Counted from the stretch's first letter, positions 1,663 through 57,337 are shown. The stretch: 64,000 bases of DNA from Candidatus Pacearchaeota archaeon (GCA_016186425.1 JACPLR010000011.1:13206-77205); one strand, 5' to 3'. Numbers and translations: made by a program. The notes: generated from the letters alone by a model not told the origin.

Positions 1663-2540
1663 GAACTGCCTCCTGTTGCAGAATATGCTTGAGAACTTAT
1701 TTCTGGAACTGATGTTAAACAATATGATAAGGTTTCTGTATTGGCTGCAGCTCCTCTTGGAAGTGTGGAGGTAGTTATTGCAGTTGATGAAGCATGCACT
1801 AGAGAATTTCCTAATCCACATACATCTGGTTGAGATAAGCCGGCTACTTTAAAATTCGCTGCTGGAATATTTTGCGATGCATCTGTTTCTCCAATTAAAT
1901 TATATGCAGTTGCTAAAATTGCCCCTGGAGGGGCTTCGAAATTTCCATTATTTGTAATTAATGTATTATCTGTTGAAAGAATATTAATATCTTCTGGAGC
2001 CACAGATGGGAAATTAATTATTGCCGGGCTAATTGAAATATCTCTTAAAAGGTTGACTGTCAGGGTTGATGAGCTTTGTGCAGTAGCTGCCTTTGTGTCA
2101 GCTACACTTACAGTTGCTGTCCATGCCCCGCTTTTATCATAATAATTCATTGAAACACTGCACTGATATGTTTTTTCCTTCCCTGCTGAAGATTGCATAG
2201 AACATGTTCCTGTTCGTGTTGGTTCTCCTGTATTTGTGAATTGCGCAGAAGCTGTTGCGTCAACAAGGTCATTTGCTCCGTTTGCATCTCTGGCTGTAAA
2301 TGTAACTAAGACAGATGTTGTTGACGGCGATGGATTTAAATTTACATTAGGTATTGCCTGCAGATTAGTAATTGTTGGCTGCGCATTTCCAACATTAATT
2401 TTTACTTGTGTTGGTTGAGATGGGGAAAGTCCAATATTTTGATTGTTTATTGCATACGAGAATGCATAGATTAAAATAACTGCAAGAATAATTATAGCCA
2501 AGATTAGAAACTTATTCAGCTTCTTTTTCCTCTTTTTCAT
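1641..2540 (-). CDS. Secreted/membrane-anchored T/S/N/A-rich protein
   Basis: A K-rich N-terminus is followed by a hydrophobic anchor (MKKRKKKLNKFLILAIIILAVILIYA). The remainder is rich in T/S/N/A, typical of extracellular glycoprotein regions. Adjacent to another surface-protein gene. Confidence 0.5.
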   Translation of the reverse strand: MKKRKKKLNKFLILAIIILAVILIYAFSYAINNQNIGLSPSQPTQVKINVGNAQPTITNLQAIPNVNLNPSPSTTSVLVTFTARDANGANDLVDATASAQFTNTGEPTRTGTCSMQSSAGKEKTYQCSVSMNYYDKSGAWTATVSVADTKAATAQSSSTLTVNLLRDISISPAIINFPSVAPEDINILSTDNTLITNNGNFEAPPGAILATAYNLIGETDASQNIPAANFKVAGLSQPDVCGLGNSLVHASSTAITTSTLPRGAAANTETLSYCLTSVPEISSQAYSATGGSSWVIAIN

Positions 2541-2637
2541 ACAAATACTAGCTTTTTATTGTTTAAAAAGATTTCTTTCATAAGTTTAGGCATAACGGAA
2601 AGGATAATTTTAAAAATATGCTTTTTCTGGAGTTATC

Positions 2638-3912
2638 ATGGAAAGAAGTTATATTGAAGAAGCTTTTAAGAAAAAAGGAAAAGTTTTGCTAAAAGGCTGG
2701 GTTCATGAAGTTAGAGACTTAAGCAAGATTAGGTTTATTATTCTTAGAGATATTACTGGCCAGATTCAGTTAGTTGGAGTGAAATCTGAAACAGGTGAAA
2801 AAGCTTTTGAGTTAATGAAAAGCTTGAACAGAGAAAGTGTTATTTCAGTTATAGGAGAGGTTAAGGATTCTAAACAGGCACCTGGTGGAAAAGAAGTTTT
2901 AATTGAGAAAATTGAGTTAATTGCCAAAGCAGAGCATCCTTTGCCAATTGATGTAAGTGATTTTTCGAAAACAGAACTGCCAAAAAGGCTAGATTACAGA
3001 TTTTTAGATTTGCACAGAAAGCAGACACAGGCTATTTTTAAGGTTCAGTCAACAATTCAACAAGCTTATATGGAATTTATGATTAATGAAGGAGCTGTAA
3101 TGGCTCAATTCCCTTCAATAATTGGAAGCAGCAGCGAGGGTGGAACTGATTTATTTAATGTTCAGTATTTTGAGAAAAAAGCGTGCTTGTCTCAAAGCTG
3201 TCAGTTGTATAAACAAATGCTGGCCTGTTCAATGGAAAAAGTTTTTGCAATATTCACAGTATGGAGAGCTGAAAAGCATAATACTGTAAGGCATTTGAAT
3301 GAATCAAGACAGTTTGATTATGAGCAGGCATTTGCAGATGATAAAGTTGTAATGGAAGTTTTAGGAAGATGTGTTCATTATATTGTTAAAAGAGTTATGG
3401 AATTAAATAAAAAAGAACTAGAGCTTTTAGAAGTTAAATTAAAAATTCCAACTACTAAGTATATTACTTTTGCACAGGTTTCCGAGATAATGAAAAAATA
3501 TAAGATTCATGTTGGAAAAGATGATCTTTCAGGAGAAGCTGAAGAAAAGCTTGGAGAGTTATATCCAGATACTATTGTTTTTGTTCATGACTGGCCTTTA
3601 AGCGGAAAGCCGTTTTATATAATGCCAAAAGGCAAGGATTTAAGTTACGGATTTGATGCAATTTACAAAGGAATGGAAATTTCATCAGGAGGGCAAAGAA
3701 TTCATCTTCCTGATTTATTAATTGAAAGACTTAAAGCCAAAGGACTTGATCCTAAACAATTTAAAGCTTATGTTGACAGTTTCAGATACGGAGCTCCAAT
3801 GCACGCTGGCTGGGGAGTTGGATTGGAAAGAATAACTATGTTAATTCTAGGATTGAAAAATATCAGAGAAGCTGTTTTATTCCCAAGAGACAGAGATAGA
3901 GTAAGCCCTTGA
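2638..3912 (+). CDS. aspS: Aspartyl-tRNA synthetase, archaeal/eukaryal type (class IIb)
   Basis: N-terminal OB anticodon-binding domain (LKGWVHEVRDLSKIRFIILRD). Class II motifs are present, including the flipping loop QSCQLYKQ (AspRS-like LYKQ rather than AsnRS) and motif 3 (GAPMHAGWGVGLERI). Length 424 aa. Confidence 0.85.
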   Translation: MERSYIEEAFKKKGKVLLKGWVHEVRDLSKIRFIILRDITGQIQLVGVKSETGEKAFELMKSLNRESVISVIGEVKDSKQAPGGKEVLIEKIELIAKAEHPLPIDVSDFSKTELPKRLDYRFLDLHRKQTQAIFKVQSTIQQAYMEFMINEGAVMAQFPSIIGSSSEGGTDLFNVQYFEKKACLSQSCQLYKQMLACSMEKVFAIFTVWRAEKHNTVRHLNESRQFDYEQAFADDKVVMEVLGRCVHYIVKRVMELNKKELELLEVKLKIPTTKYITFAQVSEIMKKYKIHVGKDDLSGEAEEKLGELYPDTIVFVHDWPLSGKPFYIMPKGKDLSYGFDAIYKGMEISSGGQRIHLPDLLIERLKAKGLDPKQFKAYVDSFRYGAPMHAGWGVGLERITMLILGLKNIREAVLFPRDRDRVSP

Positions 3913-48125: not shown

Positions 48126-51100
48126 ATGAGAATTAGCAAATTTGCTCTTAGTTTAATAGTTGTATTTATCTTTACTTTAGGATTATCTGTAGCTGTTTAC
48201 GCAGTTGACGACTTGATGGCTTTGCAGGGAAATGTGCAACAAAGCGGGGTTAATCTGGCTTCTGGAAACCTGACTGTTTATATTTTTGATGCTTATAGCA
48301 GTGGAAATGTTGTTTATAATTCAACCACTGATTTTTTTAATTCTATTTCAAGCGGAAAATATGATGTAATGCTTGGAAATGGCTCGCAAACATTAAGCCT
48401 TGAATACGGAAGAACATATTTTCTTGAAATGTATGTTAATAATGAGAAGCTAAGCTTTAATGGCTCAACAAGGCAGGTATTCCAGAGTTCTGCAGGCCAG
48501 ATTAATGGCAGTTTTATTAATCCAAACCAGATAAATACAACCCATATTTCTGGAAACATTTCTTTCACACAATTATCTGGATACGAAAATATTGTTTTAA
48601 CAAATAAATCCTCAACATTATCTGATGGCTACAACATTACAACTGGCGCTGGGGGATGGTTTAAAGGGCTGTTTAATTGGATTATAAACTCAACATCATC
48701 CCTTTATTTAAGCTTTAATGGAACAACTTTAAGTTTTAATGAAGCGCAATTAAATTCAACTATTGACTCTAGAGTTAGCTGGGGAGGATATATAATTTCA
48801 TCAGTAAGCAATAACACATTCTCTCAAATAACAAACAATACATTCTCTTTAATAACAAATAACACATTCTCTCAAATAACAAACAATACATTCTCTTTAA
48901 TAACAAATAATACACTCTCTCAAATAACAAATAATACACTCTCTCAAATAACAAATAATACTTTCTCTTTAATAACAAATACAACATTCTCAACTATTGG
49001 TAATAACACAATTTCAACCATAGGAAATTCCACCTTTTCTTTAATTACAAACACAACTATTTCAACAATTGGGAATAATACTTATTTAAAAATTACAGAC
49101 AATAATCTTTATCTTAATTTCACGCCTTCTGGTACAGTTGACTTTAATAGGGGATGGCAGTCTGGAGGGCTGACAATAAGCAACGGAAATATTTTTGCTC
49201 AAACAGGTTATTTTTATAATATAACTTCACTAGCCGTAAATAATCTTAATGTAAATGCGAGCATAATTCCTGGGACTGGATTTGATTCAACATTTGATAT
49301 TGGAAACGTGACTTCTAGATGGAGAGATGCCTTTTTTACAGGTGTTGTTAATGCCTCAACATTCTCGGCAAAATATCTGAATGCAACAACAGAAGCTTAC
49401 ATTAATGGCGCTGCTGTTAGCACTTGGCTTTATAACCAAACAACGCCCGCATCAATAATCGGCAACTCATCTGTAAGTAATCTGATTAACAATACTTTTT
49501 CTCCAATATCTAACAGCACATTTTCATTAATTACTAATACTACCTTTTCAGAAAGAATTAATGCAACTTATCCATTTATTTCAAATTTTTCAATATCAAA
49601 AACAATTAATGAAACTTTATCTGAAAGAGGAAATGCAACTTATGTAAAGTTAGGTTATAATCCATTCAACCAAGACCTTAACACATCAGATTCTGTTATC
49701 TTCCAAAATATAACTTTAACAGGGAATTTGACTCTTAAAAGTTCTTTTATGAATAATACACAAGTAATTTTCATTAACAGTCCTACTAACGGTGAATTAG
49801 TAGATGGATTATATTTAACAAAAACAGCCGATGCAAGCAGGAACTGGATAACTTGGAATCAAGGCGCATCTGGTTTAGCAGATTGGAGAATTGGCATGAC
49901 TAGAAATTCTATAGGAGGTTATTCTTTATCTTTTTATAATGCTAATGGCTCTACGTCAAATGCAACAAATCCTGGATTAGAAGTTTTAAGATTAACTGGT
50001 TATACTCAAGCTGGAAATGTTATTATTCCAAATGGGAGAGTAGGAATAAATATAACCTCTCCAGCAGCTGCTTTAGATGTAAATGGGGGAATTATTGGAG
50101 CAAACATAACTTCAACAGGAAATTTAACTATAAGCGGGAATGCAACATTTTTAGATAGGGTTGGAATAGGAACAGCAAGTCCTGCAGCAACTTTAGATGT
50201 TAATGGAGGAGATATAAGAGTTAATGGAGAAATTGTTACTAATAATTATAGCAGAATAGTTTTAACAAGACCAGACCAATTAGCAAGCGGAAATGTTTTA
50301 AATATAATTAATTATGGGGCAAATCAAAGCGACCAAACAAATTTAGGGATATCAACAACTAATACTACAATGATTTTTACAAATATTGGAAGTCCTGAAC
50401 AGGTTGCTTTTGCAATAGGAACAAGAGGTTCTTCTCCTTTAGTATTTTCTACAAATAATGCAGAAAGAATGAGGATACTTTCTGGAGGGAATGTGGGGAT
50501 AGGAACAACAACTCCTGCAAAAACATTAGAAGTTGCAGGACAAGCTCAAATTAGGTCTACATCTCCTGAATTATATTTTAATGATACAAGTGCAACAGGG
50601 CAAAATTATAGATTATCAATGTTTAATGATGATTTTTTGCTTCAAGATTGGAATGGTGCAAATACAATATTCCAAATGAATAATACCAGAATAGTTTTTA
50701 ATAAAAATGTTGGAATTGGGACAACAACTCCGAAAGCAACTTTAGATGTTAATGGAAATTTAACTATCACTGGGAATTTAACAATTACAAACGGAACAAC
50801 TGATAATGTTATATTCTATGCTAATCCTGTAAATTCAAGAGTTGGAATAGGAACAGTAAGCCCTGCAAATAATTTGAATATTCTTGCGGGGGCTGTTTCA
50901 AATATAGTTAATATATCTTCAAACGGGGCAAATAGAGAAGGAGATATAATATTAGGAAGAACAACAGGATATTTTGTATCATCAACTCCAGGAGGTTTTA
51001 TTTCTACTGCGGATACTTTGTCAATTGTCTCTGCAAACCATATTTCTTTCGGCAATTCAAGTTCTCTTGTTGAATATGCAAGAATTACGGGAGATGGAAA

Positions 51101-51884
51101 ATTCATTGTTTCAGGAACTGTAAATATCACTTCAAATTTAACAATAAGGAATAGTTTTTTTGTTAATGGCTCTAATTTACGATTAGGAATGGTTAATGCG
51201 CCAGATAATAGTGTTGTCCATATAAATGGAAGTGCTATTGGAAATGGAAATGCAATTACCTTAGGAAAGGCAGGACCAGGAAATTGGGGTTTAGATAGCA
51301 CTGGGGCTTTGATAGTTATAATTGGAGGAGATGATGCTGTAGCTCGTGATGCAGGAATTGCATTTAGAGATGAAAGAAGCAATAACATATGGAGCATAAG
51401 AAATGATGTTTCCGAGGGGAGAAAATTAAAAATAGGTTATGGGGGTACTGTAACCGATTTGCTTATTTTAGTTAATACGACAAATCTTGTTGGAATTAAT
51501 GTTCCAGACCCTGCAGCAACCTTAGATGTAAATTCAACTTCAGGATTAGGGGCATTTTTAGTAAGAAATAATTCAAATAATTTATTCTTTATTAATGCCA
51601 CTACAGGTTTTTTGGGAATTGGAACAGCAAATCCAACATCAACATTATATGTTAATTCTTCTTATGGAAACGGAGCATTTCTTGTTCAAAATGATTCAAA
51701 TCCAAATTTATTGTTTGTAAATGGCTCAAGTGGATTTGTTGGGATAGGAACTGTTTCGCCAAGACAGAAGCTTGAAGTAGCCGGCAACGTTAATGTCAGC
51801 AATCATGGAAGCAATATTACATTAGGAAAAGGCCAGATGTACTGGGATAATCCAAACAACAGGCTTGTTATTAGGGTGAGCTAA
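48126..51884 (+). CDS. Giant cell-surface (S-layer/adhesin-like) glycoprotein, 1252 aa, with internal repeats
   Basis: An N-terminal signal/anchor (ISKFALSLIVVFIFTLGLSVAVYA) is followed by dozens of N-x-S/T sequons. There are 14 tandem heptads NNTFSQIT/NNTFSLIT and 8 copies of the motif (R/N)VGIGTxxPxxxL(D/E)V(N/A)G. Confidence 0.8.
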   Translation: MRISKFALSLIVVFIFTLGLSVAVYAVDDLMALQGNVQQSGVNLASGNLTVYIFDAYSSGNVVYNSTTDFFNSISSGKYDVMLGNGSQTLSLEYGRTYFLEMYVNNEKLSFNGSTRQVFQSSAGQINGSFINPNQINTTHISGNISFTQLSGYENIVLTNKSSTLSDGYNITTGAGGWFKGLFNWIINSTSSLYLSFNGTTLSFNEAQLNSTIDSRVSWGGYIISSVSNNTFSQITNNTFSLITNNTFSQITNNTFSLITNNTLSQITNNTLSQITNNTFSLITNTTFSTIGNNTISTIGNSTFSLITNTTISTIGNNTYLKITDNNLYLNFTPSGTVDFNRGWQSGGLTISNGNIFAQTGYFYNITSLAVNNLNVNASIIPGTGFDSTFDIGNVTSRWRDAFFTGVVNASTFSAKYLNATTEAYINGAAVSTWLYNQTTPASIIGNSSVSNLINNTFSPISNSTFSLITNTTFSERINATYPFISNFSISKTINETLSERGNATYVKLGYNPFNQDLNTSDSVIFQNITLTGNLTLKSSFMNNTQVIFINSPTNGELVDGLYLTKTADASRNWITWNQGASGLADWRIGMTRNSIGGYSLSFYNANGSTSNATNPGLEVLRLTGYTQAGNVIIPNGRVGINITSPAAALDVNGGIIGANITSTGNLTISGNATFLDRVGIGTASPAATLDVNGGDIRVNGEIVTNNYSRIVLTRPDQLASGNVLNIINYGANQSDQTNLGISTTNTTMIFTNIGSPEQVAFAIGTRGSSPLVFSTNNAERMRILSGGNVGIGTTTPAKTLEVAGQAQIRSTSPELYFNDTSATGQNYRLSMFNDDFLLQDWNGANTIFQMNNTRIVFNKNVGIGTTTPKATLDVNGNLTITGNLTITNGTTDNVIFYANPVNSRVGIGTVSPANNLNILAGAVSNIVNISSNGANREGDIILGRTTGYFVSSTPGGFISTADTLSIVSANHISFGNSSSLVEYARITGDGKFIVSGTVNITSNLTIRNSFFVNGSNLRLGMVNAPDNSVVHINGSAIGNGNAITLGKAGPGNWGLDSTGALIVIIGGDDAVARDAGIAFRDERSNNIWSIRNDVSEGRKLKIGYGGTVTDLLILVNTTNLVGINVPDPAATLDVNSTSGLGAFLVRNNSNNLFFINATTGFLGIGTANPTSTLYVNSSYGNGAFLVQNDSNPNLLFVNGSSGFVGIGTVSPRQKLEVAGNVNVSNHGSNITLGKGQMYWDNPNNRLVIRVS
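48805..49100 (+). repeat. Tandem 21-bp repeat (~14 copies) within the giant surface protein gene, encoding heptads (I)TNNTFS(Q/L)
   Basis: The unit ATAACAAA(T/C)AA(T/C)ACATTCTCT(C/T)(A/T)A repeats head-to-tail. Diverged copies follow (TNTTFSTIGNNTISTIGNSTFSLI...). Confidence 0.8.
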
Positions 51885-52163
51885 TGATTATTTACAAAAT
51901 AAAAAGGAATTAAAATGTTTTATAAATTAGAACATTTGTTCAAGAAATTAGAACAAGAGAAAGAAAAGATGAAGAAAAATAAAATAATATCAGTTAATAA
52001 GTATAATAAATTAGGCAAAAGTATTTCATGGTTTCAAGATATTATGAATCATTACCATACTAAATTTCTCATTAGAGAGAAATTTAACCTTATTTATTTG
52101 GCTAGTTAAGTTTATTAAATTTATAAAATGGGCGTGAAAAATGGAAAATAAATATGAGAATAT

Positions 52164-52529
52164 TTATTTAATTCGGAATCCAAATAAAGAAAGGATAAAT
52201 AATTTGCCAGAAAATTCTATCGGGCTAATTTCATTAAATAACTTTGAGAGTGATGAAAATATGACCTCAATCCTTGGTGGATGTAGGTCTATAAAAATAA
52301 TTCCTGGATGCTCTTTTGGAGGAAACAGGTTTTTATCTATGAAGTGCTTATCAAAAGTTAATATAACTCTCGATTCGGCTTTTGCTAGGTTCGAAAGAAT
52401 TTTGTCAGTTGCACCTATAGGTATTTTTTTAATGTCAAAACCCTCTTTGATCAACAATTCAGTCAGTCCAACAGGTATATTTTCATCAGAAATAAGCTTT
52501 GGTTTATTGGAAGAGGACATATTTCTCAT
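52164..52529 (-). CDS. DUF5615 (PIN-like) putative toxin, cassette 1
   Basis: KLISDENIPVGLTELLIKEGFDI...ILTFDKHF matches the DUF5615 pattern (M-fLlDENl......L...GhDv...ilT-D-DF). Overlaps the end of the DUF433 gene. Exact start is uncertain (Met at 52550, 52529 or 52520). Confidence 0.6.
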   Translation of the reverse strand: MRNMSSSNKPKLISDENIPVGLTELLIKEGFDIKKIPIGATDKILSNLAKAESRVILTFDKHFIDKNLFPPKEHPGIIFIDLHPPRIEVIFSSLSKLFNEISPIEFSGKLFILSLFGFRIK

Positions 52530-52740
52530 CTTCCACAAGCTTAGAAGCATAGTTCAAGACAGAGAAAATAGCTTCTTTATTGAGTTGCGGGAAATAATTT
52601 TTTATAATCTCCTCAATAGTTATTCCGCTTCCAAGAAGCTCCAATACCTGCCATACCATAATTCTAGTATTCTTGAATACAGGCTTTCCGTGGCATATTT
52701 CACTATCTACAATAATATAATCATTTATTTCAATTCTCAT
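52504..52740 (-). CDS. DUF433 putative antitoxin, cassette 1
   Basis: MRIEINDYIIVDSEICHGKPVFKNTRIMVWQVLELLGSGITIEEIIKNYFPQL closely matches the DUF433 consensus (I--dP-i--GkP-i-GTRI-V--vl--l--G-s-eEI---YP-Lt-e-I-aAL-yA). Confidence 0.75.
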   Translation of the reverse strand: MRIEINDYIIVDSEICHGKPVFKNTRIMVWQVLELLGSGITIEEIIKNYFPQLNKEAIFSVLNYASKLVEDEKYVLFQ

Positions 52741-52900
52741 AAAGCAATTAAGTCAGAAGAAGTATTTAAACTTTCTGAATCTTTACCATATTTTAAGCAT
52801 GATATTAATAATCATCAGCTTTTATATAATGATTTAAAGCATATAAATTATAGAAAATGAAACTTAAAAATAGAATAACTTCAATAGATAAGTATGGCAA
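52741..52900. repeat. Direct repeat copy 1 (~145 bp) immediately upstream of the cassette 1 DUF433 start
   Basis: Nearly identical to 53596..53745 (tcagaagaagtatttaaactttctgaatctttaccatattttaagcatgatattaataatcatcagcttttatataatgatttaaagcatataaattatagaaaatgaaacttaaaaatagaataacttcaatagataagtat). Confidence 0.85.
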
Positions 52901-53018
52901 AAGCATTATAGGATTTCATAATATTTATTTGACTAGTTAAATTAGTGTTTGTTGACTTTATAAAATGAGCGTGAAAAATGGAAAATAAAATTAATGAAAG
53001 AATTAAAACAGAGCAAGA

Positions 53019-53360
53019 TTATAGTATTTTAAACTCTTTATCCGAGATTAAAAGAATAACTCTTCCTTTTAATTCATACTCTGAAAATTTTTTTAATAGG
53101 TTTAATATCGCATTTTTTTGTAGATCAACCTTATTTGGAGGGATTCTTAATAATATTATCCCAAAATGGTGTTCTAAAGAAGAATATGGAGGCTTTGAAA
53201 AATCAGTATCTTGTGAAATAATTATTCTTTCTTTAGTTATTGCTAATTTAAAGACTTCACCATTTTTAATTCCTTTAGGGCAGAATATAACATCATGCCC
53301 TAATTTCTTTAGAAAAGAAAGTAAATTATTATGTGCATTTTCGTCCAATAAAAATCTCAT
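53019..53360 (-). CDS. DUF5615 (PIN-like) putative toxin, cassette 2
   Basis: MRFLLDENAHNNLLSFLKKLGHDVIF...IIISQDTDF...GIILLR matches DUF5615. Its start is 1 nt after the DUF433 stop. Confidence 0.7.
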   Translation of the reverse strand: MRFLLDENAHNNLLSFLKKLGHDVIFCPKGIKNGEVFKLAITKERIIISQDTDFSKPPYSSLEHHFGIILLRIPPNKVDLQKNAILNLLKKFSEYELKGRVILLISDKEFKIL

Positions 53361-53361
53361 T

Positions 53362-53595
53362 TTATACAGCTATAGTGTCAAAACTTCTTTTAGTAAGCTT
53401 GGTAGCAAGATCAAGTGCTGCTTTAATGTGCTCTTTTGTAAGAGAGGGATAGGCCTCAAAGATATCATTTATACTAGCTCCTTCTTCAAGCATTTCAAGA
53501 ACGAGATATACCATTATCCTAGTCCCTTTAAATACAGGTTTTCCATGGCATATTTCACTATCTACAATGATATAGTCATTTATGTCAATTCTCAT
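53362..53595 (-). CDS. DUF433 putative antitoxin, cassette 2
   Basis: MRIDINDYIIVDSEICHGKPVFKGTRIMVYLVLEMLEEGASINDIFEAYPSLTKEHIKAALDLA is canonical DUF433. The first ~30 aa are near-identical to the cassette 1 antitoxin. Confidence 0.8.
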   Translation of the reverse strand: MRIDINDYIIVDSEICHGKPVFKGTRIMVYLVLEMLEEGASINDIFEAYPSLTKEHIKAALDLATKLTKRSFDTIAV

Positions 53596-53750
53596 AAGCT
53601 AATTAAGTTAGAAGAAGTATTTAAACTTTCTGAATCTTTACCATATTTTAAGCATGATATTAATAATCATCAGCTTTTATATAATGATTTAAAGCATATA
53701 AATTATAGAAAATGAAACTTAAAAATAGAATAACTTCAATAGATAAGTAT
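53596..53750. repeat. Direct repeat copy 2 upstream of the cassette 2 DUF433 start
   Basis: See copy 1. This is the shared promoter/5' region of the two TA-like operons. Confidence 0.85.
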
Positions 53751-53763
53751 TTGGCTATGGGCC

Positions 53764-55281
53764 ATGATAACTAATAAGGTGAAATTAAAAATGGAAAATA
53801 AAAAATTTGGATATTTTGAGTATATAAAAAGCAAAAAAATGGTTTTTCTGTATTTAGCAATTATTTTATTAGCCTCTATACTAATTTTTAGGTTATTTGA
53901 CCCAAATAATCCTCTTACAGGAAACTCTGTTAAGATTACAGGAGAGGCAATTAGGCAGGAACAAATTAGTGCTGAAAAAGATAAATTAATTAAAGCGCCA
54001 ATTGAGGTAAAAGAAAAGAGAGATTATACTTCTCAAACTTATAAAAATCCTGATGGCACCTACACAGCAGTAATTGGGGCTAGGCCCCAGTTTTTTTTCA
54101 ATGGAAGCGAGTTTACAGAAATTGAAAAAATTTCTCAGCCAAGAATTGAAAAAAAAGAAATTGTTTTAAATAAAAAACCAACAAATAATATTTTTGATTT
54201 TGGAACTTATAATCTTGCCGAAGGCATTAATGCCAGCATAGACCTTGAAACTCAAGAATTAATTTTAAGGGATGTAAATAATAATATCATGCAGGTTTTG
54301 CCAAGGCCTTTCAGCATTGACAAAAATAATAATACTTTATTTAATAATTATAAAATATCACAAAAAAAGCAAAAGCTGACGATAAGTGTTAATGTTGACA
54401 AAATATGGCTAGATAATGCTGAATATCCGGTTGTAATTGATCCGACAACAATAACAATTTTAACAAATACTTATATGGGAAATGTTTATCCGGTAGGAGG
54501 CATAGGAGGGGGGTATTATAAAAGAAGTTCTAATGGCTCTACTATTGGAGCAGACTGCACTTTTGGAGAGCCAAATACCTGTGAAACCTACAGAACTTTT
54601 ATTGAATTTGATACAACAGCAATACCTGATTCAGCAGATATAAATGACACAATACTTAATATAAGTGTTAGTTCAAGAACATTTTGCTCTGGCGAATCAG
54701 AAATTCATACAAATATAACAAGATTTAATAACTCGCGAATTTCAGACCCAACGAACTATTCCGGAACTAATGCGGGAAATCTGTCTTTATTCAACAATAT
54801 TTCAACAGGATATAAATACCTTGGAAGCTATGCCAGTGATTTAAATTACACCGAAGTTGGCAAAGAATTTACACGAGACCTAGGAACAAAGGCTGATGAA
54901 GATTTAAAATCACAATTAGGAAATAATTTTTTTGCATTAGGAGTTTATACAAACCAAGAAACTTCAACATTAGACTGTATACATACAGTTACTTTTAATG
55001 ACTCTGCAAAAGCTTCTGGATATCCAAAACTTATGGTAAATTACACCTCTGCTGCATGTGTTATACCGCCTAATGGTGATTGGAATTGCAATGCCAGCTG
55101 TATTTTTACAAATGAAAACCTTAAAATTACTGGGGGCGATTTAGTTATTCGTGACCAGTGTAACCTAACCTTGAACGCATCAACTAACCTAACCTTGGCT
55201 TCGCCAGGAAGATATATTTTGGTATATAGTGGGGGGCAAATTTTTATCCATAATGGCTCTGGAATTAACAGGAGAAATTAA
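53764..55281 (+). CDS. Secreted/anchored surface protein (505 aa), N-terminal TM/signal anchor
   Basis: An N-terminal hydrophobic segment (MVFLYLAIILLASILIF) is followed by an N-x-S/T-rich, Cys-containing ectodomain. No family recognised. Confidence 0.55.
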   Translation: MITNKVKLKMENKKFGYFEYIKSKKMVFLYLAIILLASILIFRLFDPNNPLTGNSVKITGEAIRQEQISAEKDKLIKAPIEVKEKRDYTSQTYKNPDGTYTAVIGARPQFFFNGSEFTEIEKISQPRIEKKEIVLNKKPTNNIFDFGTYNLAEGINASIDLETQELILRDVNNNIMQVLPRPFSIDKNNNTLFNNYKISQKKQKLTISVNVDKIWLDNAEYPVVIDPTTITILTNTYMGNVYPVGGIGGGYYKRSSNGSTIGADCTFGEPNTCETYRTFIEFDTTAIPDSADINDTILNISVSSRTFCSGESEIHTNITRFNNSRISDPTNYSGTNAGNLSLFNNISTGYKYLGSYASDLNYTEVGKEFTRDLGTKADEDLKSQLGNNFFALGVYTNQETSTLDCIHTVTFNDSAKASGYPKLMVNYTSAACVIPPNGDWNCNASCIFTNENLKITGGDLVIRDQCNLTLNASTNLTLASPGRYILVYSGGQIFIHNGSGINRRN

Positions 55282-55400
55282 TATATTTTATGAACTTTGC
55301 AAATACAAAATTATAAGTAAAAATAAAAGATAATTGATATTATCCTATAAATATTAGAGAAATTAAAAGAGGTAATTTAAAATTAGCAGTTAAGTATAAA

Positions 55401-55482
55401 AAATCAGGCAAAAATATTGCAATATTATCTAAGATTTTTGAAAATATACAATAAATAAATTTTTCTCCAAGAAAAATTTAAC
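55401..55482 (+). repeat. A-type repeat copy (leader variant; loop variant tccaag)
   Basis: aaatcaggcaaaaatattgcaatattatctaagatttttgaaaatatacaataaataaatttttctccaagaaaaatttaac. Confidence 0.75.
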
Positions 55483-55825
55483 ATTATTTGATACTATTAA
55501 TTAAGTTACAGCTAAATTTATAATATATAATTTATAGCATCTTAGAGTATAAGGTATTAATCTTTATAATTTATGTATTTTGATCAGTAATTGGCATAAT
55601 TTATGCATTATTTAGATAAATACTTATCACTTAATCTGTTATTATATTAATTTATCTAATCTTTAATTGTCCTTTATTATATTCATTGCCCTAATTTGAT
55701 TAATATGCTATAAAAAACATCTCTTGCAATTACTACTTTTTAATTGCCATTATTCTTGCTTAATTGTTATTACTAAAAACTAAGGCTTAGGAAAAATTTA
55801 TAAATCTTAGTCTTTTAAGAATTAT

Positions 55826-57337
55826 ATGCAATCAGCAAGGTCTGAAGATAATAGTAGTAAGTATGCTCAAGATAGCAATAATGTAAATAATAGTGAAAGT
55901 GATAGAGGCCTCTATGGGTTTTATTCTGGCTTAAAAGATTTTGGAAAAAGCCTGGGGAAAAAAGCACTTAGAACAGGGCTTGTTTCTTTAGTAGGATTAA
56001 CAGCTTATTTTTCTGGGATTTTACCAATGGGAAAAGCATACGCTCTTCCAAGTCCTCCAGCCGGGCTTACAACAATTAATGCCCAGTTAATGGATAAAGC
56101 AACTTTTGATAGTAAATACCCAAATCCAAATGATGCTCCAGCTTATACTTATTTTGATGATCCTGCTAATCCTTATCGTGATGCACAGGGCAATCTTATA
56201 AATACTCCTTTAGATACTGCTTTAGAGGATTTTAAAGCACTTACACAAGCAAATCCTGATACATATTTAATTGATTTTCATATTTCAGATAACAGAAGAT
56301 ATTTTTCTCATAGGGACTTGCATGATCTAAATTATGACATGGAAATTTATGGAGATGGAAAAGATTATACCATAATTGAGGTATCATTGCAGGCTCTTAA
56401 GTTTCTAGGAATTAGGGATATAAGCGGAGGAACAGGCACTACTGGTATTGGTTTTGTTGTATATCCTCTGGATTCAAGCGGATATATGGTAAATAGCCAT
56501 AGTGAAGAAACAATTAACATTGATCAGTCAGCTAATATTGAAATTATTAACAATATACTTACAAACCGCAGCACTGATGCAACAATAATCGTATCAGGTC
56601 CTCTTGCAAAATCAGGAATAGTTAATTCTATTCTTAATTATAATGATATATCGGCAACTTTAGGATTTCAGTTGCAAAGGGCTGCTGTTGTTGATATGGG
56701 AACAAGTGGAAAATTTGGTAACAATAATGTTAACTGCACTACTGCAATATATGGTTCTCCAACATTTAACGGAGAGGTTATTGCAGTTGGTGATGCTTGG
56801 GTTGGAACAGTTGCAAAATCTATAAAGGGCTCTACAAGAATGGAAAAAACGCAAGGTTACTTGACGAATGTTAATGATATTTTTGCTCAAAAAGTTGACA
56901 ATGACGGGGGCGGAACAATAACTATTTCAAGCCCTTTAGGTTATAATCCTGTAGTAGTTGATACTGACAATGAAGGATTAACAGATGGTTTTGAAGCAAC
57001 AATTGGCACAAATCCTACTCTGGCTGACACAGACGGAGACCATATCAGCGATTATGCAGAACATACTCTTGGAAGCAATCCTCTTAACCCTGCAGATGTT
57101 CCGTTAATATCTCCTGATGTCTGGGTTGATTTTGCTTATCCTTATACAGATGGCATTGGCACAAGCAATAATCCATTTCCAACAGCCCTTGAGGGAATTA
57201 TTAGCGTTTTCCCATTTGGAACAGTTAAAATAAAGGGAAATACTGGAGATAATTCAACTGCAGAAGCTTTACGCATTACAAAACCAATGAGAATTGAGGC
57301 AGTTAATGGTGGTGTAAGAATTGGGGCAAACAATTAA
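55826..57337 (+). CDS. Secreted surface protein (503 aa) with thrombospondin-type-3-like Ca-binding repeats
   Basis: The hydrophobic segment LVSLVGLTAYFSGILPMGKAYA acts as signal/anchor. A later DTDNEGLTDGFEATIGTNPTLADTDGDHISDYAEHTLGSNPLNPAD region has the DxDxDG-x-x-D/E pattern of TSP3-like calcium-binding repeats. Confidence 0.55.
   Translation: MQSARSEDNSSKYAQDSNNVNNSESDRGLYGFYSGLKDFGKSLGKKALRTGLVSLVGLTAYFSGILPMGKAYALPSPPAGLTTINAQLMDKATFDSKYPNPNDAPAYTYFDDPANPYRDAQGNLINTPLDTALEDFKALTQANPDTYLIDFHISDNRRYFSHRDLHDLNYDMEIYGDGKDYTIIEVSLQALKFLGIRDISGGTGTTGIGFVVYPLDSSGYMVNSHSEETINIDQSANIEIINNILTNRSTDATIIVSGPLAKSGIVNSILNYNDISATLGFQLQRAAVVDMGTSGKFGNNNVNCTTAIYGSPTFNGEVIAVGDAWVGTVAKSIKGSTRMEKTQGYLTNVNDIFAQKVDNDGGGTITISSPLGYNPVVVDTDNEGLTDGFEATIGTNPTLADTDGDHISDYAEHTLGSNPLNPADVPLISPDVWVDFAYPYTDGIGTSNNPFPTALEGIISVFPFGTVKIKGNTGDNSTAEALRITKPMRIEAVNGGVRIGANN

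Follow-up and report, generated by a model that had tools for sequence, protein, structure and literature searches.

Within a surface-protein gene cluster of a DPANN archaeon (Candidatus Pacearchaeota), the minus strand carries two tandem gene pairs, each consisting of a DUF433 gene and a DUF5615 gene for a PIN-like protein, and a long open reading frame runs antisense to each pair. We analysed a stretch of 64,000 nt, referred to here as the window, and compared the pairs with related cassettes from genome and metagenome contigs. We consider it fairly probable that both pairs are selfish, toxin–antitoxin (TA)-like modules with promoters of their own, which lie backwards in the leader of a surface-protein gene and have been selected to let translation in the host sense pass through them.

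A preliminary description of the locus had proposed two bicistronic DUF433–DUF5615 TA-like modules, and a Pfam profile search confirmed this assignment, with matches for all four ORFs. The features it described were all present, their coordinates being off by no more than ~10 nt. The genes and predicted promoters of the two cassettes are as follows:

52504–52740, minus strand: DUF433-1, 78 aa, predicted antitoxin-like DNA-binding protein (PF04255, E 2.8e-20)
52164–52529, minus strand: DUF5615-1, PIN-like (Mut7-C group) nuclease (PF18480, E 1.9e-13)
52763–52777, minus strand: BRE/TATA promoter of cassette 1, CAGAAAG TTTAAATA
53362–53595, minus strand: DUF433-2, 77 aa, a mosaic gene (PF04255, E 8.1e-22)
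53019–53360, minus strand: DUF5615-2, 113 aa, PIN-like nuclease (PF18480, E 2.6e-16, plus a weak Mut7-C match)
53618–53632, minus strand: BRE/TATA promoter of cassette 2, same sequence as in cassette 1

The pairing is widely conserved, with a DUF5615 partner directly downstream of 73 of 84 DUF433 homologues. DUF5615-1 overlaps the end of DUF433-1; the junction in cassette 2 is TAA-A-ATG, which places the ATG of DUF5615-2 1 nt past the stop codon of DUF433-2. The longest ORF for DUF5615-1 spans 52164–52550 (128 aa as listed), and its true start is probably M8 at 52529 or M11 at 52520, because an M(K/R)NMSS.NKPK start is kept in two related loci, L001 and L005. DUF433-1 is 95% identical to a Pacearchaeota locus (L007) and DUF433-2 matches PDB entry 2GA1 at E 0.003, while a sequence search of the PDB with DUF5615-2 gave no significant match. 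The two DUF5615 proteins share 25% identity. Among relatives the acidic motifs L.DEN and T.D.DF are conserved (D at 97%), and in cassettes with open antisense frames they are fully conserved. DUF5615-2 carries LLDEN and SQDTDF; DUF5615-1 carries L.DEN and TFDKHF, with a His at the third conserved acidic position, where 90% of relatives have Asp. Sense-gene dN/dS values were 0.07–0.2 (0.07 for DUF433-1).

The unit common to cassette 1 and L005 comprises 52157–52770 only, that is, the promoter and the two genes. Most archaeal relatives have a GAAAGnTTTAAATA motif at the same distance from DUF433, and many bacterial relatives have an extended −10 element instead. Since the TATA box ends 22 nt ahead of the DUF433 ATG, a leaderless or near-leaderless mRNA is expected.

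VapBC-like type II TA modules of the PIN-COG2442 (DUF433) type were predicted by Makarova et al. (2009; PMC2701414), and one such pair, VapBC10 of Synechocystis, was tested and acts as a TA system (PMC3834315). COG4634/DUF5615 proteins are regarded as putative toxins of the Mut7-C group of PIN-like domains (PMC5499597). Judged by profile matches and gene order, the family described here is of this VapBC-like PIN-COG2442 type, and its two proteins would be expected to act as a toxin–antitoxin pair.

Both cassettes lie among copies of a host element, which we call module R and in which a small ORF is followed by a TATA-like box and then by the first codons of a surface-protein gene:

51915–52152, plus strand: module R copy 1, with a 64-aa small ORF (51915–52109) followed by TTTATAAAATGGGCGTGAAAAATGGAAAATAAA
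52857–52989, plus strand: module R copy 2, shortened, with a small ORF (52857–52940; MKLKNRITSIDKYGKSIIGFHNIYLTS) followed by TTTATAAAATGAGCGTGAAAAATGGAAAATAAA
53712–53803, plus strand: module R copy 3, most reduced, with a small ORF (53712–53774) followed by GGTGAAATTAAAAATGGAAAATAAAA, leading into the 505-aa gene
55340–55560, plus strand: module R copy 4, cassette-free, upstream of the next surface-protein gene (55826–57337)
53764–55281, plus strand: host gene for a 505-aa predicted membrane-anchored surface protein, with the cassettes in its leader

Each cassette is thus flanked by module R copies, i.e. by direct repeats of the host leader. The common 3′ flanks noted in the preliminary description were confirmed: 52110–52152 and 52947–52989 agree at 91% over 43 nt, with another repeat, of 31 nt, adjoining them. 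TTTATAAAATGGGCGTGAAAAATGGAAAATAAA matches the TATA-like box and first codons seen ahead of the surface-protein gene in L001, and a 504-aa homologue of the 505-aa protein lies downstream of a single cassette in L001–L003. A third copy of AAAAATGGAAAATAAA occurs at 53787, at the 5′ end of the 505-aa gene (three copies, against 0.12 expected by chance); here an in-frame MENK start at 53791 offers an alternative to the listed start at 53764. Host-derived direct repeats of 17–134 nt also flank 21 of 70 related cassettes. In their length and variability these repeats do not look like the footprint of a transposase; we found no transposase or recombinase in the shared unit 52157–52770 and no flanking inverted repeats.

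The two long plus-strand ORFs, which we regard as candidate pass-through frames, are:

52141–52860, plus strand: pass-through frame 1, 239 codons, starting at a ATGGAAAATAAA (MENK) motif
52978–53715, plus strand: pass-through frame 2, 245 codons, matching frame 1 in layout and in relative frames

Frame 1 runs antisense to DUF5615-1 (in antisense frame 1) and to DUF433-1 (in the codon-aligned frame 0), and then through the promoter. Each plus ORF opens with the ATGGAAAATAAA motif, which the 505-aa gene likewise has at its 5′ end, and each overlaps a small leader ORF through ATGA at its other end. Their C-termini are alike only through the repeated upstream segment, as had been proposed, since both ORFs read through the same 141 nt. 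Neither 52141–52860 nor 52978–53715 matched a Pfam profile. Open homologues of plus ORF 1 were found at 55–84% identity; searching public assemblies for an exact match to plus ORF 2 returned nothing. Purifying selection on the amino acids of these ORFs, named in the preliminary description as evidence that would speak against its reading, was not seen over the DUF433 overlap, where dN/dS in antisense frame 0 was 0.65–1.08. Over DUF5615 the antisense ratio is uninformative, because third codon positions are common to both frames and the value mirrors that of the sense gene.

Taken jointly, the open stretches of each cassette are improbable given the proteins encoded on the minus strand. In the window's other genes, antisense stop codons occur at 0.065 per codon in frame 0 and 0.040 per codon in frame 1, and the longest frame-0 shadow spans 109 codons. 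Long antisense ORFs opposite FtsZ, NFACT, prephenate dehydrogenase and the 1252-aa protein served as a calibration for chance shadows; all proved to be frame-1 shadows lacking Pfam matches, and we rejected them as candidates. Both cassettes are open over a 78-codon frame-0 stretch and a 113–118-codon frame-1 stretch. None of the 14 Leu codons in the two DUF433 genes is TTA or CTA, codons that account for 55% of Leu in the window's genes. By synonymous resampling, the probability of an open frame was 0.0012 for each DUF433 gene, 0.015 for DUF5615-2 and 0.78 for DUF5615-1, whose openness results from its amino-acid composition (no Tyr, no Gln) and not from codon choice. For the two genes of a cassette jointly, it was 9e-4 in cassette 1 and 2e-5 in cassette 2.

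The same two antisense frames were stop-free in 46 of 68 related cassettes from genome contigs and in 31 of 63 from metagenome contigs; both samples were retrieved by tblastn irrespective of gene calls, and their loci are mutually related, so that these counts are not independent events. Cassette 1 and L005 are both open at a dS of ~1–1.8. The nuclease contains 1.2% Tyr in open cassettes versus 3.0% in closed ones (p = 6e-7). Openness also follows genomic context: open non-embedded cassettes have 47 antiparallel and 12 parallel neighbours, compared with 27 and 28 for closed cassettes (Fisher p = 8e-4). An in-frame ATG lies upstream of the cassette in 31 of 36 stand-alone open frames, or in 26 of 31 once duplicates are removed, where ~12 would be expected. 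The open plus frames are not a product of chance, and the pattern suggests that they are maintained by selection. A GC-richer donor was rejected as the cause, as the GC3 of the four genes is 0.17–0.34 and closed relatives exist at equal GC; the giant antisense ORFs of relatives are likewise no artefact of masked N runs, their loci being free of N.

In many relatives the host frame is that of an intein. Intein parts were found on both sides of at least 20 cassettes of the first sample and on one or both sides of eight in the second. The host ORFs of these embedded relatives are giant LamG-type or otherwise large ones. The cassette lies antisense in their inteins, at precisely the place between block B and the C-terminal blocks that an endonuclease usually occupies, and the inteins have no other nuclease domain. 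The Pfam Intein_splicing profile brackets the cassette in L067 (E 6e-21; intein plus cassette at 2213–3272 of the locus, minus strand, arranged as 67, 190 and 96 aa). L057, L080, L030, L053, L075, L039 and L073 show the same bracketing, and all these matches exceed the gathering score. The antisense ORF of L030 also contains a paralogous intein, whose N-terminal part is followed immediately by an NYN (PIN-like) domain in frame (E 1.2e-23). One intein of L053 holds two cassettes, and one of L019 holds a DUF433 cassette together with a PIN_2 cassette. Seeds for the N- and C-terminal intein parts found nothing at E ≤ 1 in a six-frame translation of the whole window. The reason for openness is accordingly less obvious here than in the embedded relatives, and a recent descent of the window cassettes from an intein-embedded copy keeps a small residual probability. 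Viral contigs scanned with the DUF433 alignment yielded no relatives and thus no evidence for a viral vector.

The preliminary description had dismissed the plus ORFs as antisense artefacts that should not be annotated. The first of these claims did not stand, as their openness is improbable, recurrent, linked to orientation and, in relatives, part of giant intein-containing ORFs. The second holds insofar as they are not ordinary protein genes; they nevertheless appear to be a selected feature and not noise.

The two cassettes also differ in origin. The observations that their upstream segments are near-identical, and that their DUF433 genes are alike at the 5′ end and diverge strongly thereafter, were all reproduced. 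The upstream segments are:

52755–52895: 141-nt segment copy 1, which contains the promoter and 86 nt of context and in which the small leader ORF begins
53610–53750: 141-nt segment copy 2, 100% identical to copy 1 (141 of 141 nt)

Over their first 87 nt the DUF433 genes are 86–90% identical, with eight synonymous and two non-synonymous differences in the minus frame (counted from the alignment), after which nucleotide identity falls abruptly to ~45%. Codons 1–29 of DUF433-2 are 86% identical in nucleotides to cassette 1 and 70–76% to its own clade; from codon 30 to the end the values are 45% and 64–68%. Upstream, between −41 and −141, cassette 2 is 100% identical to cassette 1 and 30–43% to its own clade; this part of the segment shares 93% identity with L007, and the upstream sequences of the cassette-2 clade are unrelated to it. 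In a rough neighbour-joining tree, the two cassette bodies fell into separate deep clades, each with intein-embedded relatives in other phyla. By the segment identities, codon 30 to the end of DUF433-2 comes from the L067/L034/L048/L077 clade, and codons 1–29 from the cassette-1 lineage. These identities indicate that cassette 2 is a mosaic with a breakpoint near 53508, its 5′ end overwritten from the cassette-1 lineage. A duplication of one cassette followed by divergence, as first suggested, does not agree with bodies from different deep clades, whereas the suggestion of recombination or gene conversion limited to the 5′ end fits the segment-wise identities well. In cassette 2, gene conversion would have replaced DUF433 as far as codon 29, together with the promoter and the 141 nt upstream.

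Taken as a whole, the locus is best explained by two compact selfish modules of ~615 bp, each with its own BRE/TATA promoter, a DUF433 gene and a DUF5615 gene, whose bodies would derive from different old clades. Their lineages would reside antisense within transcription units of the host, very frequently in those of giant surface proteins whose inteins hold the cassette in the endonuclease loop; in the window, both modules would be nested backwards in the leader of the surface-protein gene, with module R copies on each side. Selection would keep the host-sense frame of such lineages free of stop codons, in that DUF433 avoids the codons TTA, CTA and TCA, and the nuclease gene avoids Tyr, His or Gln after codons ending in T or C. 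The plus ORFs would then be pass-through frames, kept open with unconstrained amino acids, beginning at a MENK motif like that at the 5′ end of the 505-aa gene and coupled through ATGA to the next leader ORF. We infer that ribosomes on the host mRNA cross the cassette, and their passage would spare the downstream surface gene a polar effect or, where the cassette lies in an intein, keep the host protein from being cut short.

Other explanations have to be weighed against this one. The locus might consist of ordinary tandem TA duplicates whose long plus ORFs are chance antisense shadows of no significance. The missing Pfam matches, an antisense dN/dS of ~1 over DUF433 and the existence of 166–206-codon shadows opposite FtsZ, NFACT, prephenate dehydrogenase and the 1252-aa protein in the same window would fit such an origin. 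Those shadows, however, all lie in antisense frame 1, with 109 codons as the longest in frame 0. Chance also accounts poorly for the joint probabilities of 9e-4 and 2e-5 for the open frame-0 and frame-1 stretches, for the recurrence of the same open frames in between about one half and two thirds of the related cassettes of both samples, and for the link between openness and the orientation of neighbouring genes; the cassette bodies, moreover, are not mutual duplicates. We strongly disfavour this explanation and give it very little credence. It is also quite improbable that the plus ORFs yield functional proteins, such as a third module component. Stand-alone copies do stay open despite saturated synonymous divergence, start codons are enriched upstream of the cassette, the ORFs overlap the next one through ATGA at their ends, and open homologues have been recorded as predicted proteins, with gene calls in those contigs that were looked up. 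Against this stand the dN/dS of 0.65–1.08 in the frame-0 overlap, the lack of Pfam matches, and N- and C-terminal extensions that are wholly different between loci (signal peptides, intein relics, host leader); within inteins, the same segment is merely an intein linker.

A more serious competitor, though still an unlikely one, is a two-component homing or mobility nuclease on the antisense strand of mini-inteins, in which DUF433 would recognise DNA and DUF5615 would cut. The window copies would be free-standing and the identity of their flanks would come from co-conversion during double-strand break repair, a scenario we also regard as doubtful. In its broadest form, to which we assign a similarly low probability, DUF433–DUF5615 and at least one PIN_2 module would form an undescribed antisense-in-coding class that supplies the homing or maintenance nuclease of mini-inteins, the window holding free-standing copies with co-conversion tracts. 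Several observations point this way: relatives occupy the homing-endonuclease position of inteins that have no other nuclease domain, the paralogous intein in L030 carries its PIN-like NYN domain in frame, host-derived direct repeats of 17–134 nt surround 21 of 70 cassettes, the same cassette type recurs in unrelated contexts, and the acidic motifs of open cassettes are fully conserved. Yet a PIN-COG2442 pair has been shown to be a TA system (PMC3834315), and the VapC-type PIN toxins studied are ribonucleases (introduction of PMC3834315). Two cassettes in one intein, as in L053 and L019, would be needless for homing, and the open frame of stand-alone copies would be left unexplained.

As in known PIN-COG2442 TA modules, a small DUF433 gene comes first and an overlapping or adjacent PIN-like nuclease gene second, the pairing is conserved across bacteria and archaea with the acidic motifs present (in DUF5615-1 with His at one acidic position), and several divergent paralogues can occur per genome. 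Unlike those modules, the lineages described here have a predicted minimal promoter of their own for a leaderless mRNA and sit antisense within a host gene, an intein or the leader of a gene, and the stop-free opposite strand shapes both their codon use and the Tyr content of the toxin. The literature that we searched contained no description of antisense-open DUF433–DUF5615 cassettes or of their nesting in inteins; a paper on Thiomargarita that had looked relevant proved to be unrelated.

Intein homing endonucleases (LAGLIDADG/HNH) and free-standing ones offer a further parallel, since the cassettes of relatives occupy the endonuclease loop of mini-inteins and, like homing endonuclease genes, combine a nuclease-family protein (here with a DNA-binding protein) with varied contexts and duplicated host flanks. 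In contrast to these endonucleases, the cassette comprises two genes, lies on the opposite strand and out of the intein frame, encodes a PIN-like nuclease of the Mut7-C group that belongs to no known homing-endonuclease family, and has no intein around it in this window. Like shadow ORFs, the plus frames are antisense to real genes, lack amino-acid constraint and are picked up by gene callers. They differ in that, in an AT-rich genome (~30% GC), a codon-aligned open stretch needs total avoidance of TTA, CTA and TCA, and in that openness is conserved in the same frames across phyla and correlated with genomic context. Frame-preserving inserts in coding sequence, such as Rickettsia palindromic elements and inteins, are likewise tolerated since the host frame stays open; the cassette, unlike these, carries two genes of its own on the other strand.

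If our interpretation is correct, the locus represents a clear, comparatively supported prokaryotic case of long (~570 nt), fully antiparallel dual use of DNA, in which one strand encodes two proteins under purifying selection and the other is kept open as an intein linker or leader ORF. A selfish TA-like module would then adapt its codons, and even its amino acids, to be tolerated inside host genes, and TA-like modules would be linked with inteins and giant surface proteins of DPANN archaea and CPR bacteria. The cassettes would also provide a testable system for translation-dependent transcript protection (polarity) in archaea. In all related contigs that were looked up the plus ORF was the called gene, which suggests that gene callers may systematically miss DUF433/DUF5615 pairs and report a false hypothetical protein in their place.

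The window has a GC content of about 30% and encodes, among others, a family-B DNA polymerase, a FEN1-like XPG nuclease, a RuBisCO large-subunit homologue, FtsZ and several aminoacyl-tRNA synthetases, a gene content indicative of an archaeon. Among related loci from other genomes and contigs (designated L), the closest genome match is L007, from Candidatus Pacearchaeota RIFCSPHIGHO2_02_FULL_31_29. Two gene pairs on the minus strand are located between the gene of a 1252-aa protein with many N-x-S/T motifs (48126-51884) and that of a membrane-anchored 505-aa protein (53764-55281). All four ORFs matched PF04255 or PF18480, in line with the preliminary description of DUF433-DUF5615 pairs:

52504-52740, minus strand, DUF433-1 (PF04255, E 2.8e-20)
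52164-52550 as listed, start probably at 52529 or 52520, minus strand, DUF5615-1 (PF18480, E 1.9e-13)
53362-53595, minus strand, DUF433-2 (PF04255, E 8.1e-22)
53019-53360, minus strand, DUF5615-2 (PF18480, E 2.6e-16)

The two genes overlap in cassette 1 and are separated by a 1-nt gap in cassette 2. The cassettes are DUF433 plus PIN-like modules of the known PIN-COG2442 type, and the active-site-like motifs L.DEN and T.D.DF are conserved in the nuclease. PIN-COG2442 pairs are predicted toxin-antitoxin (TA) modules (PMC2701414), of which VapBC10 is one tested member (PMC3834315), and the COG4634 partner belongs to the Mut7-C group of PIN-like proteins (PMC5499597). In most archaeal cassettes GAAAGnTTTAAATA ends 22 nt before the DUF433 ATG, and in many bacterial ones an extended -10 element lies about 7 nt before it; the modules therefore carry a promoter of their own for a leaderless mRNA.

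Opposite the cassettes, two plus-strand ORFs (52141-52860 and 52978-53715) run codon-aligned antisense across DUF433 (frame 0) and in antisense frame 1 across DUF5615. The other window ORFs with 120 aa or more have 0.065 antisense stops per codon in frame 0 and 0.040 in frame 1, and their longest frame-0 shadow spans 109 codons; frame 1 accounts for all of the long shadows (166-206 codons), which lie opposite FtsZ, NFACT, prephenate dehydrogenase and the 1252-aa protein. TTA and CTA, which make up 55% of Leu codons in window genes, account for none of the 14 Leu codons in the two DUF433 genes. When the proteins were held fixed and synonymous codons were redrawn with window usage, each DUF433 gene kept an open frame with a probability of 0.0012, DUF5615-2 with 0.015 and DUF5615-1 with 0.78, giving joint values of 9e-4 for cassette 1 and 2e-5 for cassette 2. 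DUF5615-1 avoids stops at the amino-acid level, containing neither Tyr nor Gln.

A protein search with the first plus-strand ORF, which is biased towards open frames, returned open homologues at 55-84% identity. Two tblastn samples independent of gene calls, covering genomes (68 cassettes) and metagenome contigs (63 cassettes), were decisive. Neither frame contained a stop in 46/68 and 31/63 cassettes, respectively, many of them at 29-36% GC, while the remaining antisense frames held about 6-14 stops. Closed cassettes usually had several stops in each gene, and the distribution of stop counts looks two-peaked. The recurrence of the same open frames, together with the resampling probabilities, contradicts the preliminary view that the plus-strand ORFs are mere antisense artefacts.

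The sense genes are under purifying selection (dN/dS 0.07-0.2). The antisense frame over DUF433 gave a dN/dS of 0.65-1.08, indicating that its amino-acid sequence is free and that openness alone is retained; over DUF5615 the antisense ratio is uninformative, as third codon positions are common to both frames. Cassette 1 and its relative in L005 are both open, although synonymous sites are saturated (dS about 1-1.8) and the contexts differ. Tyr makes up 1.2% of the nuclease in open cassettes compared with 3.0% in closed ones (p = 6e-7), and since TAY codons create frame-1 stops, the protein itself has been shaped by the constraint. These data show that selection keeps the host-sense frame open in cassettes nested antiparallel to their host.

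In the first sample, 17 loci had an open antisense frame of more than 1000 codons, and N runs were absent from all five of those checked. Open frames with Pfam matches belonged to LamG/ConA-like, FG-GAP or Ig-like surface proteins; the others, including several CPR loci, had no host-domain match in Pfam. The cassette was bracketed by the Pfam Intein_splicing profile in L067 (E 6e-21) and, above the gathering score, in L057, L080, L030, L053, L075, L039 and L073. L067 has the clearest layout: a canonical intein starts with C-VAEDSLITL, contains block B (TTKEHPYL), ends with VYDLSIEGTKNFIANDIIAHN followed by T, and is broken exactly past block B by a 190-codon stretch antisense to DUF5615 and DUF433. 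Of the 46 open cassettes in the first sample, searches with intein seeds placed intein parts on both sides of at least 20 and on one side of 4 more; in the second sample, intein parts flanked 8 cassettes on one side or both. Cassettes nested in inteins are intact, and purifying selection acts on them (dN/dS about 0.1 for L030 vs L053). Cassette hosts include DPANN archaea, Methanosarcinales, Altiarchaeota, CPR bacteria and Nitrospinota.

Some inteins hold more than one module. In L053 (Kaiserbacteria), two DUF433-DUF5615 cassettes lie in tandem within a single intein (antisense ORF, aa 158-772). L088 has two open cassettes 0.8 kb apart in one gene array (L088/L089 2501-3095, 3904-4468), and both arrangements resemble the tandem cassettes of the window. 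In L019, a DUF433 cassette and a second TA-like module are both antisense in one intein; the second module (1722-2429, plus strand of the locus) pairs a 96-aa ORF with a downstream PIN_2 protein (PF10130, E 1.3e-18), leaves the host frame open and has a repeated intein segment, LRPVTDV(F/Y)AD, at its flanks. Other families besides DUF433 may thus share the pass-through property.

The DPANN LamG-protein inteins in the L019 and L062 antisense ORFs are non-canonical, starting with CYDN... and having a C-terminal part ...YDVDV.NDVVLVRR...IWSGN followed by S, in which Gly appears to replace the penultimate His. Their insertion point is marked by an intein-free paralogous repeat, SRYGNNGTL, in the same protein, and the L019 intein has an extra insertion of ~110 aa near its start. 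In a third intein in the L030 antisense ORF (L030:2-3856:-, aa 994-1208), the N-terminal splicing part is immediately followed by an in-frame NYN (PIN-like) nuclease domain (PF01936, E 1.2e-23). This suggests that inteins of CPR bacteria can carry PIN-superfamily nucleases as cargo, and it keeps alive the idea of a nuclease for homing. The two cassette proteins may form an addiction module or, alternatively, a mobility nuclease.

The window belongs to a stand-alone class of about 20 open cassettes with short open frames (217-281 codons, first sample), and no intein remnant was found in the window itself. Neighbours of open non-embedded cassettes run antiparallel to the cassette in 47 cases and parallel in 12, whereas those of closed cassettes are divided 27 to 28 (Fisher p = 8e-4). 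An in-frame ATG lies upstream of the cassette in 31/36 stand-alone frames, or 26/31 with duplicates removed, where about 12 would be expected. Some leading sequences contain relics of intein block B (L024, L145); those in L023 and L049 look like host signal peptides.

A repeated leader module, R, of about 130-240 nt lies before the surface-protein genes of the window and may act as a leader peptide or a regulatory element:

51915-52152, plus strand, R1, before cassette 1
52857-52989, plus strand, R2, between cassette 1 and cassette 2
53712-53803, plus strand, R3, after cassette 2 and followed by the 505-aa gene
55340-55560, plus strand, R4, cassette-free, after the 505-aa gene and before the next gene

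R comprises a small ORF (M.KNKIISVNKYNK.GKSI..F..) and then TTTATAAAATGAGCGTGAAAAAT, with a TATA-like box and the opening codons of the gene that follows; in L001, TTTATAAAATGAGCGTGAAAAAT includes the start of a 504-aa gene (MSVKN). L001 has two copies (1700-1880, 2582-2775), each about 170 nt, with a single cassette between them. Both plus-strand ORFs of the window start with the ATGGAAAATAAA (MENK) motif, a third copy of which lies at 53791 in the 505-aa gene (three occurrences vs 0.12 expected), and at their ends both overlap the following small leader ORF by ATGA (52857 and 53712). Through these starts and overlaps, the plus strand forms an almost unbroken chain of host-direction ORFs. The 545 bp around R4, between the 505-aa and 503-aa genes (55282-55825), contain only two small ORFs of at least 25 aa, one at each end.

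Within inteins, the inferred reason for openness is plain: any stop codon would cut short the giant host protein, while the endonuclease loop tolerates an unconstrained 190-aa linker. For leader positions such as those in the window, we propose that host-sense translation crosses the cassette and passes to the next ORF via the ATGA overlap, which would prevent transcription polarity, or the decay that an untranslated stretch ahead of the surface gene might undergo.

The two cassettes had been described as having near-identical 5' regions, diverged bodies and similar 3' flanks, a pattern said to fit cassette duplication. The alignment bears out this pattern: the upstream 141 nt match fully (52755-52895 and 53610-53750), identity is 86-90% over the first 87 nt of DUF433, with 8 synonymous and 2 non-synonymous differences in the minus frame, and then drops sharply to about 45%, and the 3' flanks are similar again over about 75 nt. 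The two DUF5615 proteins share 25% identity. For comparison, 80 loci were fetched from species-representative genomes by DUF433 alignment and tblastn; a DUF5615-like gene lay directly downstream in 73/84 DUF433 homologues. In a rough neighbour-joining tree of concatenated proteins, cassette 1 clusters with L007, L008, L010 and L009, and cassette 2 with L048, L034, L067 (a Methanosarcinales MAG) and L077, which contradicts a local duplication.

Identity of cassette 2 segments to the cassette 1 lineage and to its own clade
DUF433 codons 1-29: cassette 1 lineage 86%, own clade 70-76%
DUF433 codons 30 to end: cassette 1 lineage 45%, own clade 64-68%
Upstream -41 to -141: cassette 1 lineage 100% (L007 93%), own clade 30-43%

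These identities and the derived signature YIIVDSEICHGKPVFK in codons 1-29 of both cassettes show that cassette 2 is a mosaic whose 5' end was overwritten from the cassette-1 lineage, with a breakpoint near 53508. This agrees with the earlier suggestion of recombination or gene conversion limited to the 5' end. In L001-L003 and L007 the cassette-1 orthologue is the sole cassette and immediately precedes the homologous 504-aa gene; cassette 2 is therefore a presence/absence polymorphism. The unit common to cassette 1 and L005 is confined to 52157-52770, from 7 nt past the nuclease stop codon to the TATA box, and lacks a recombinase. In 21/70 cassettes, host-derived direct repeats of 17-134 nt lie at the flanks, suggesting that cassettes may enter and leave via recombination at repeated host sequence. 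L001 (1105-1684), L002 and L003 also have an extra, conventional TA pair in host orientation, a 71-aa ORF and a PF01850 PIN protein, located between the 1252-aa gene homologue and the leader module; it is absent from the window.

The DUF433 plus PIN-like module family is already known. Within the incomplete coverage of our literature search, we found no paper linking DUF433 or PIN-type TA modules with inteins and no description of conserved open antisense frames like these; what appears to be new is the pass-through architecture on the antisense strand and the nesting within inteins. TA genes of the DUF433/DUF5615 type may be under-represented in public protein sets. In the contigs looked up for L001-L006, the pass-through plus-strand ORF is called as a gene everywhere, and the DUF433 and DUF5615 genes are uncalled.
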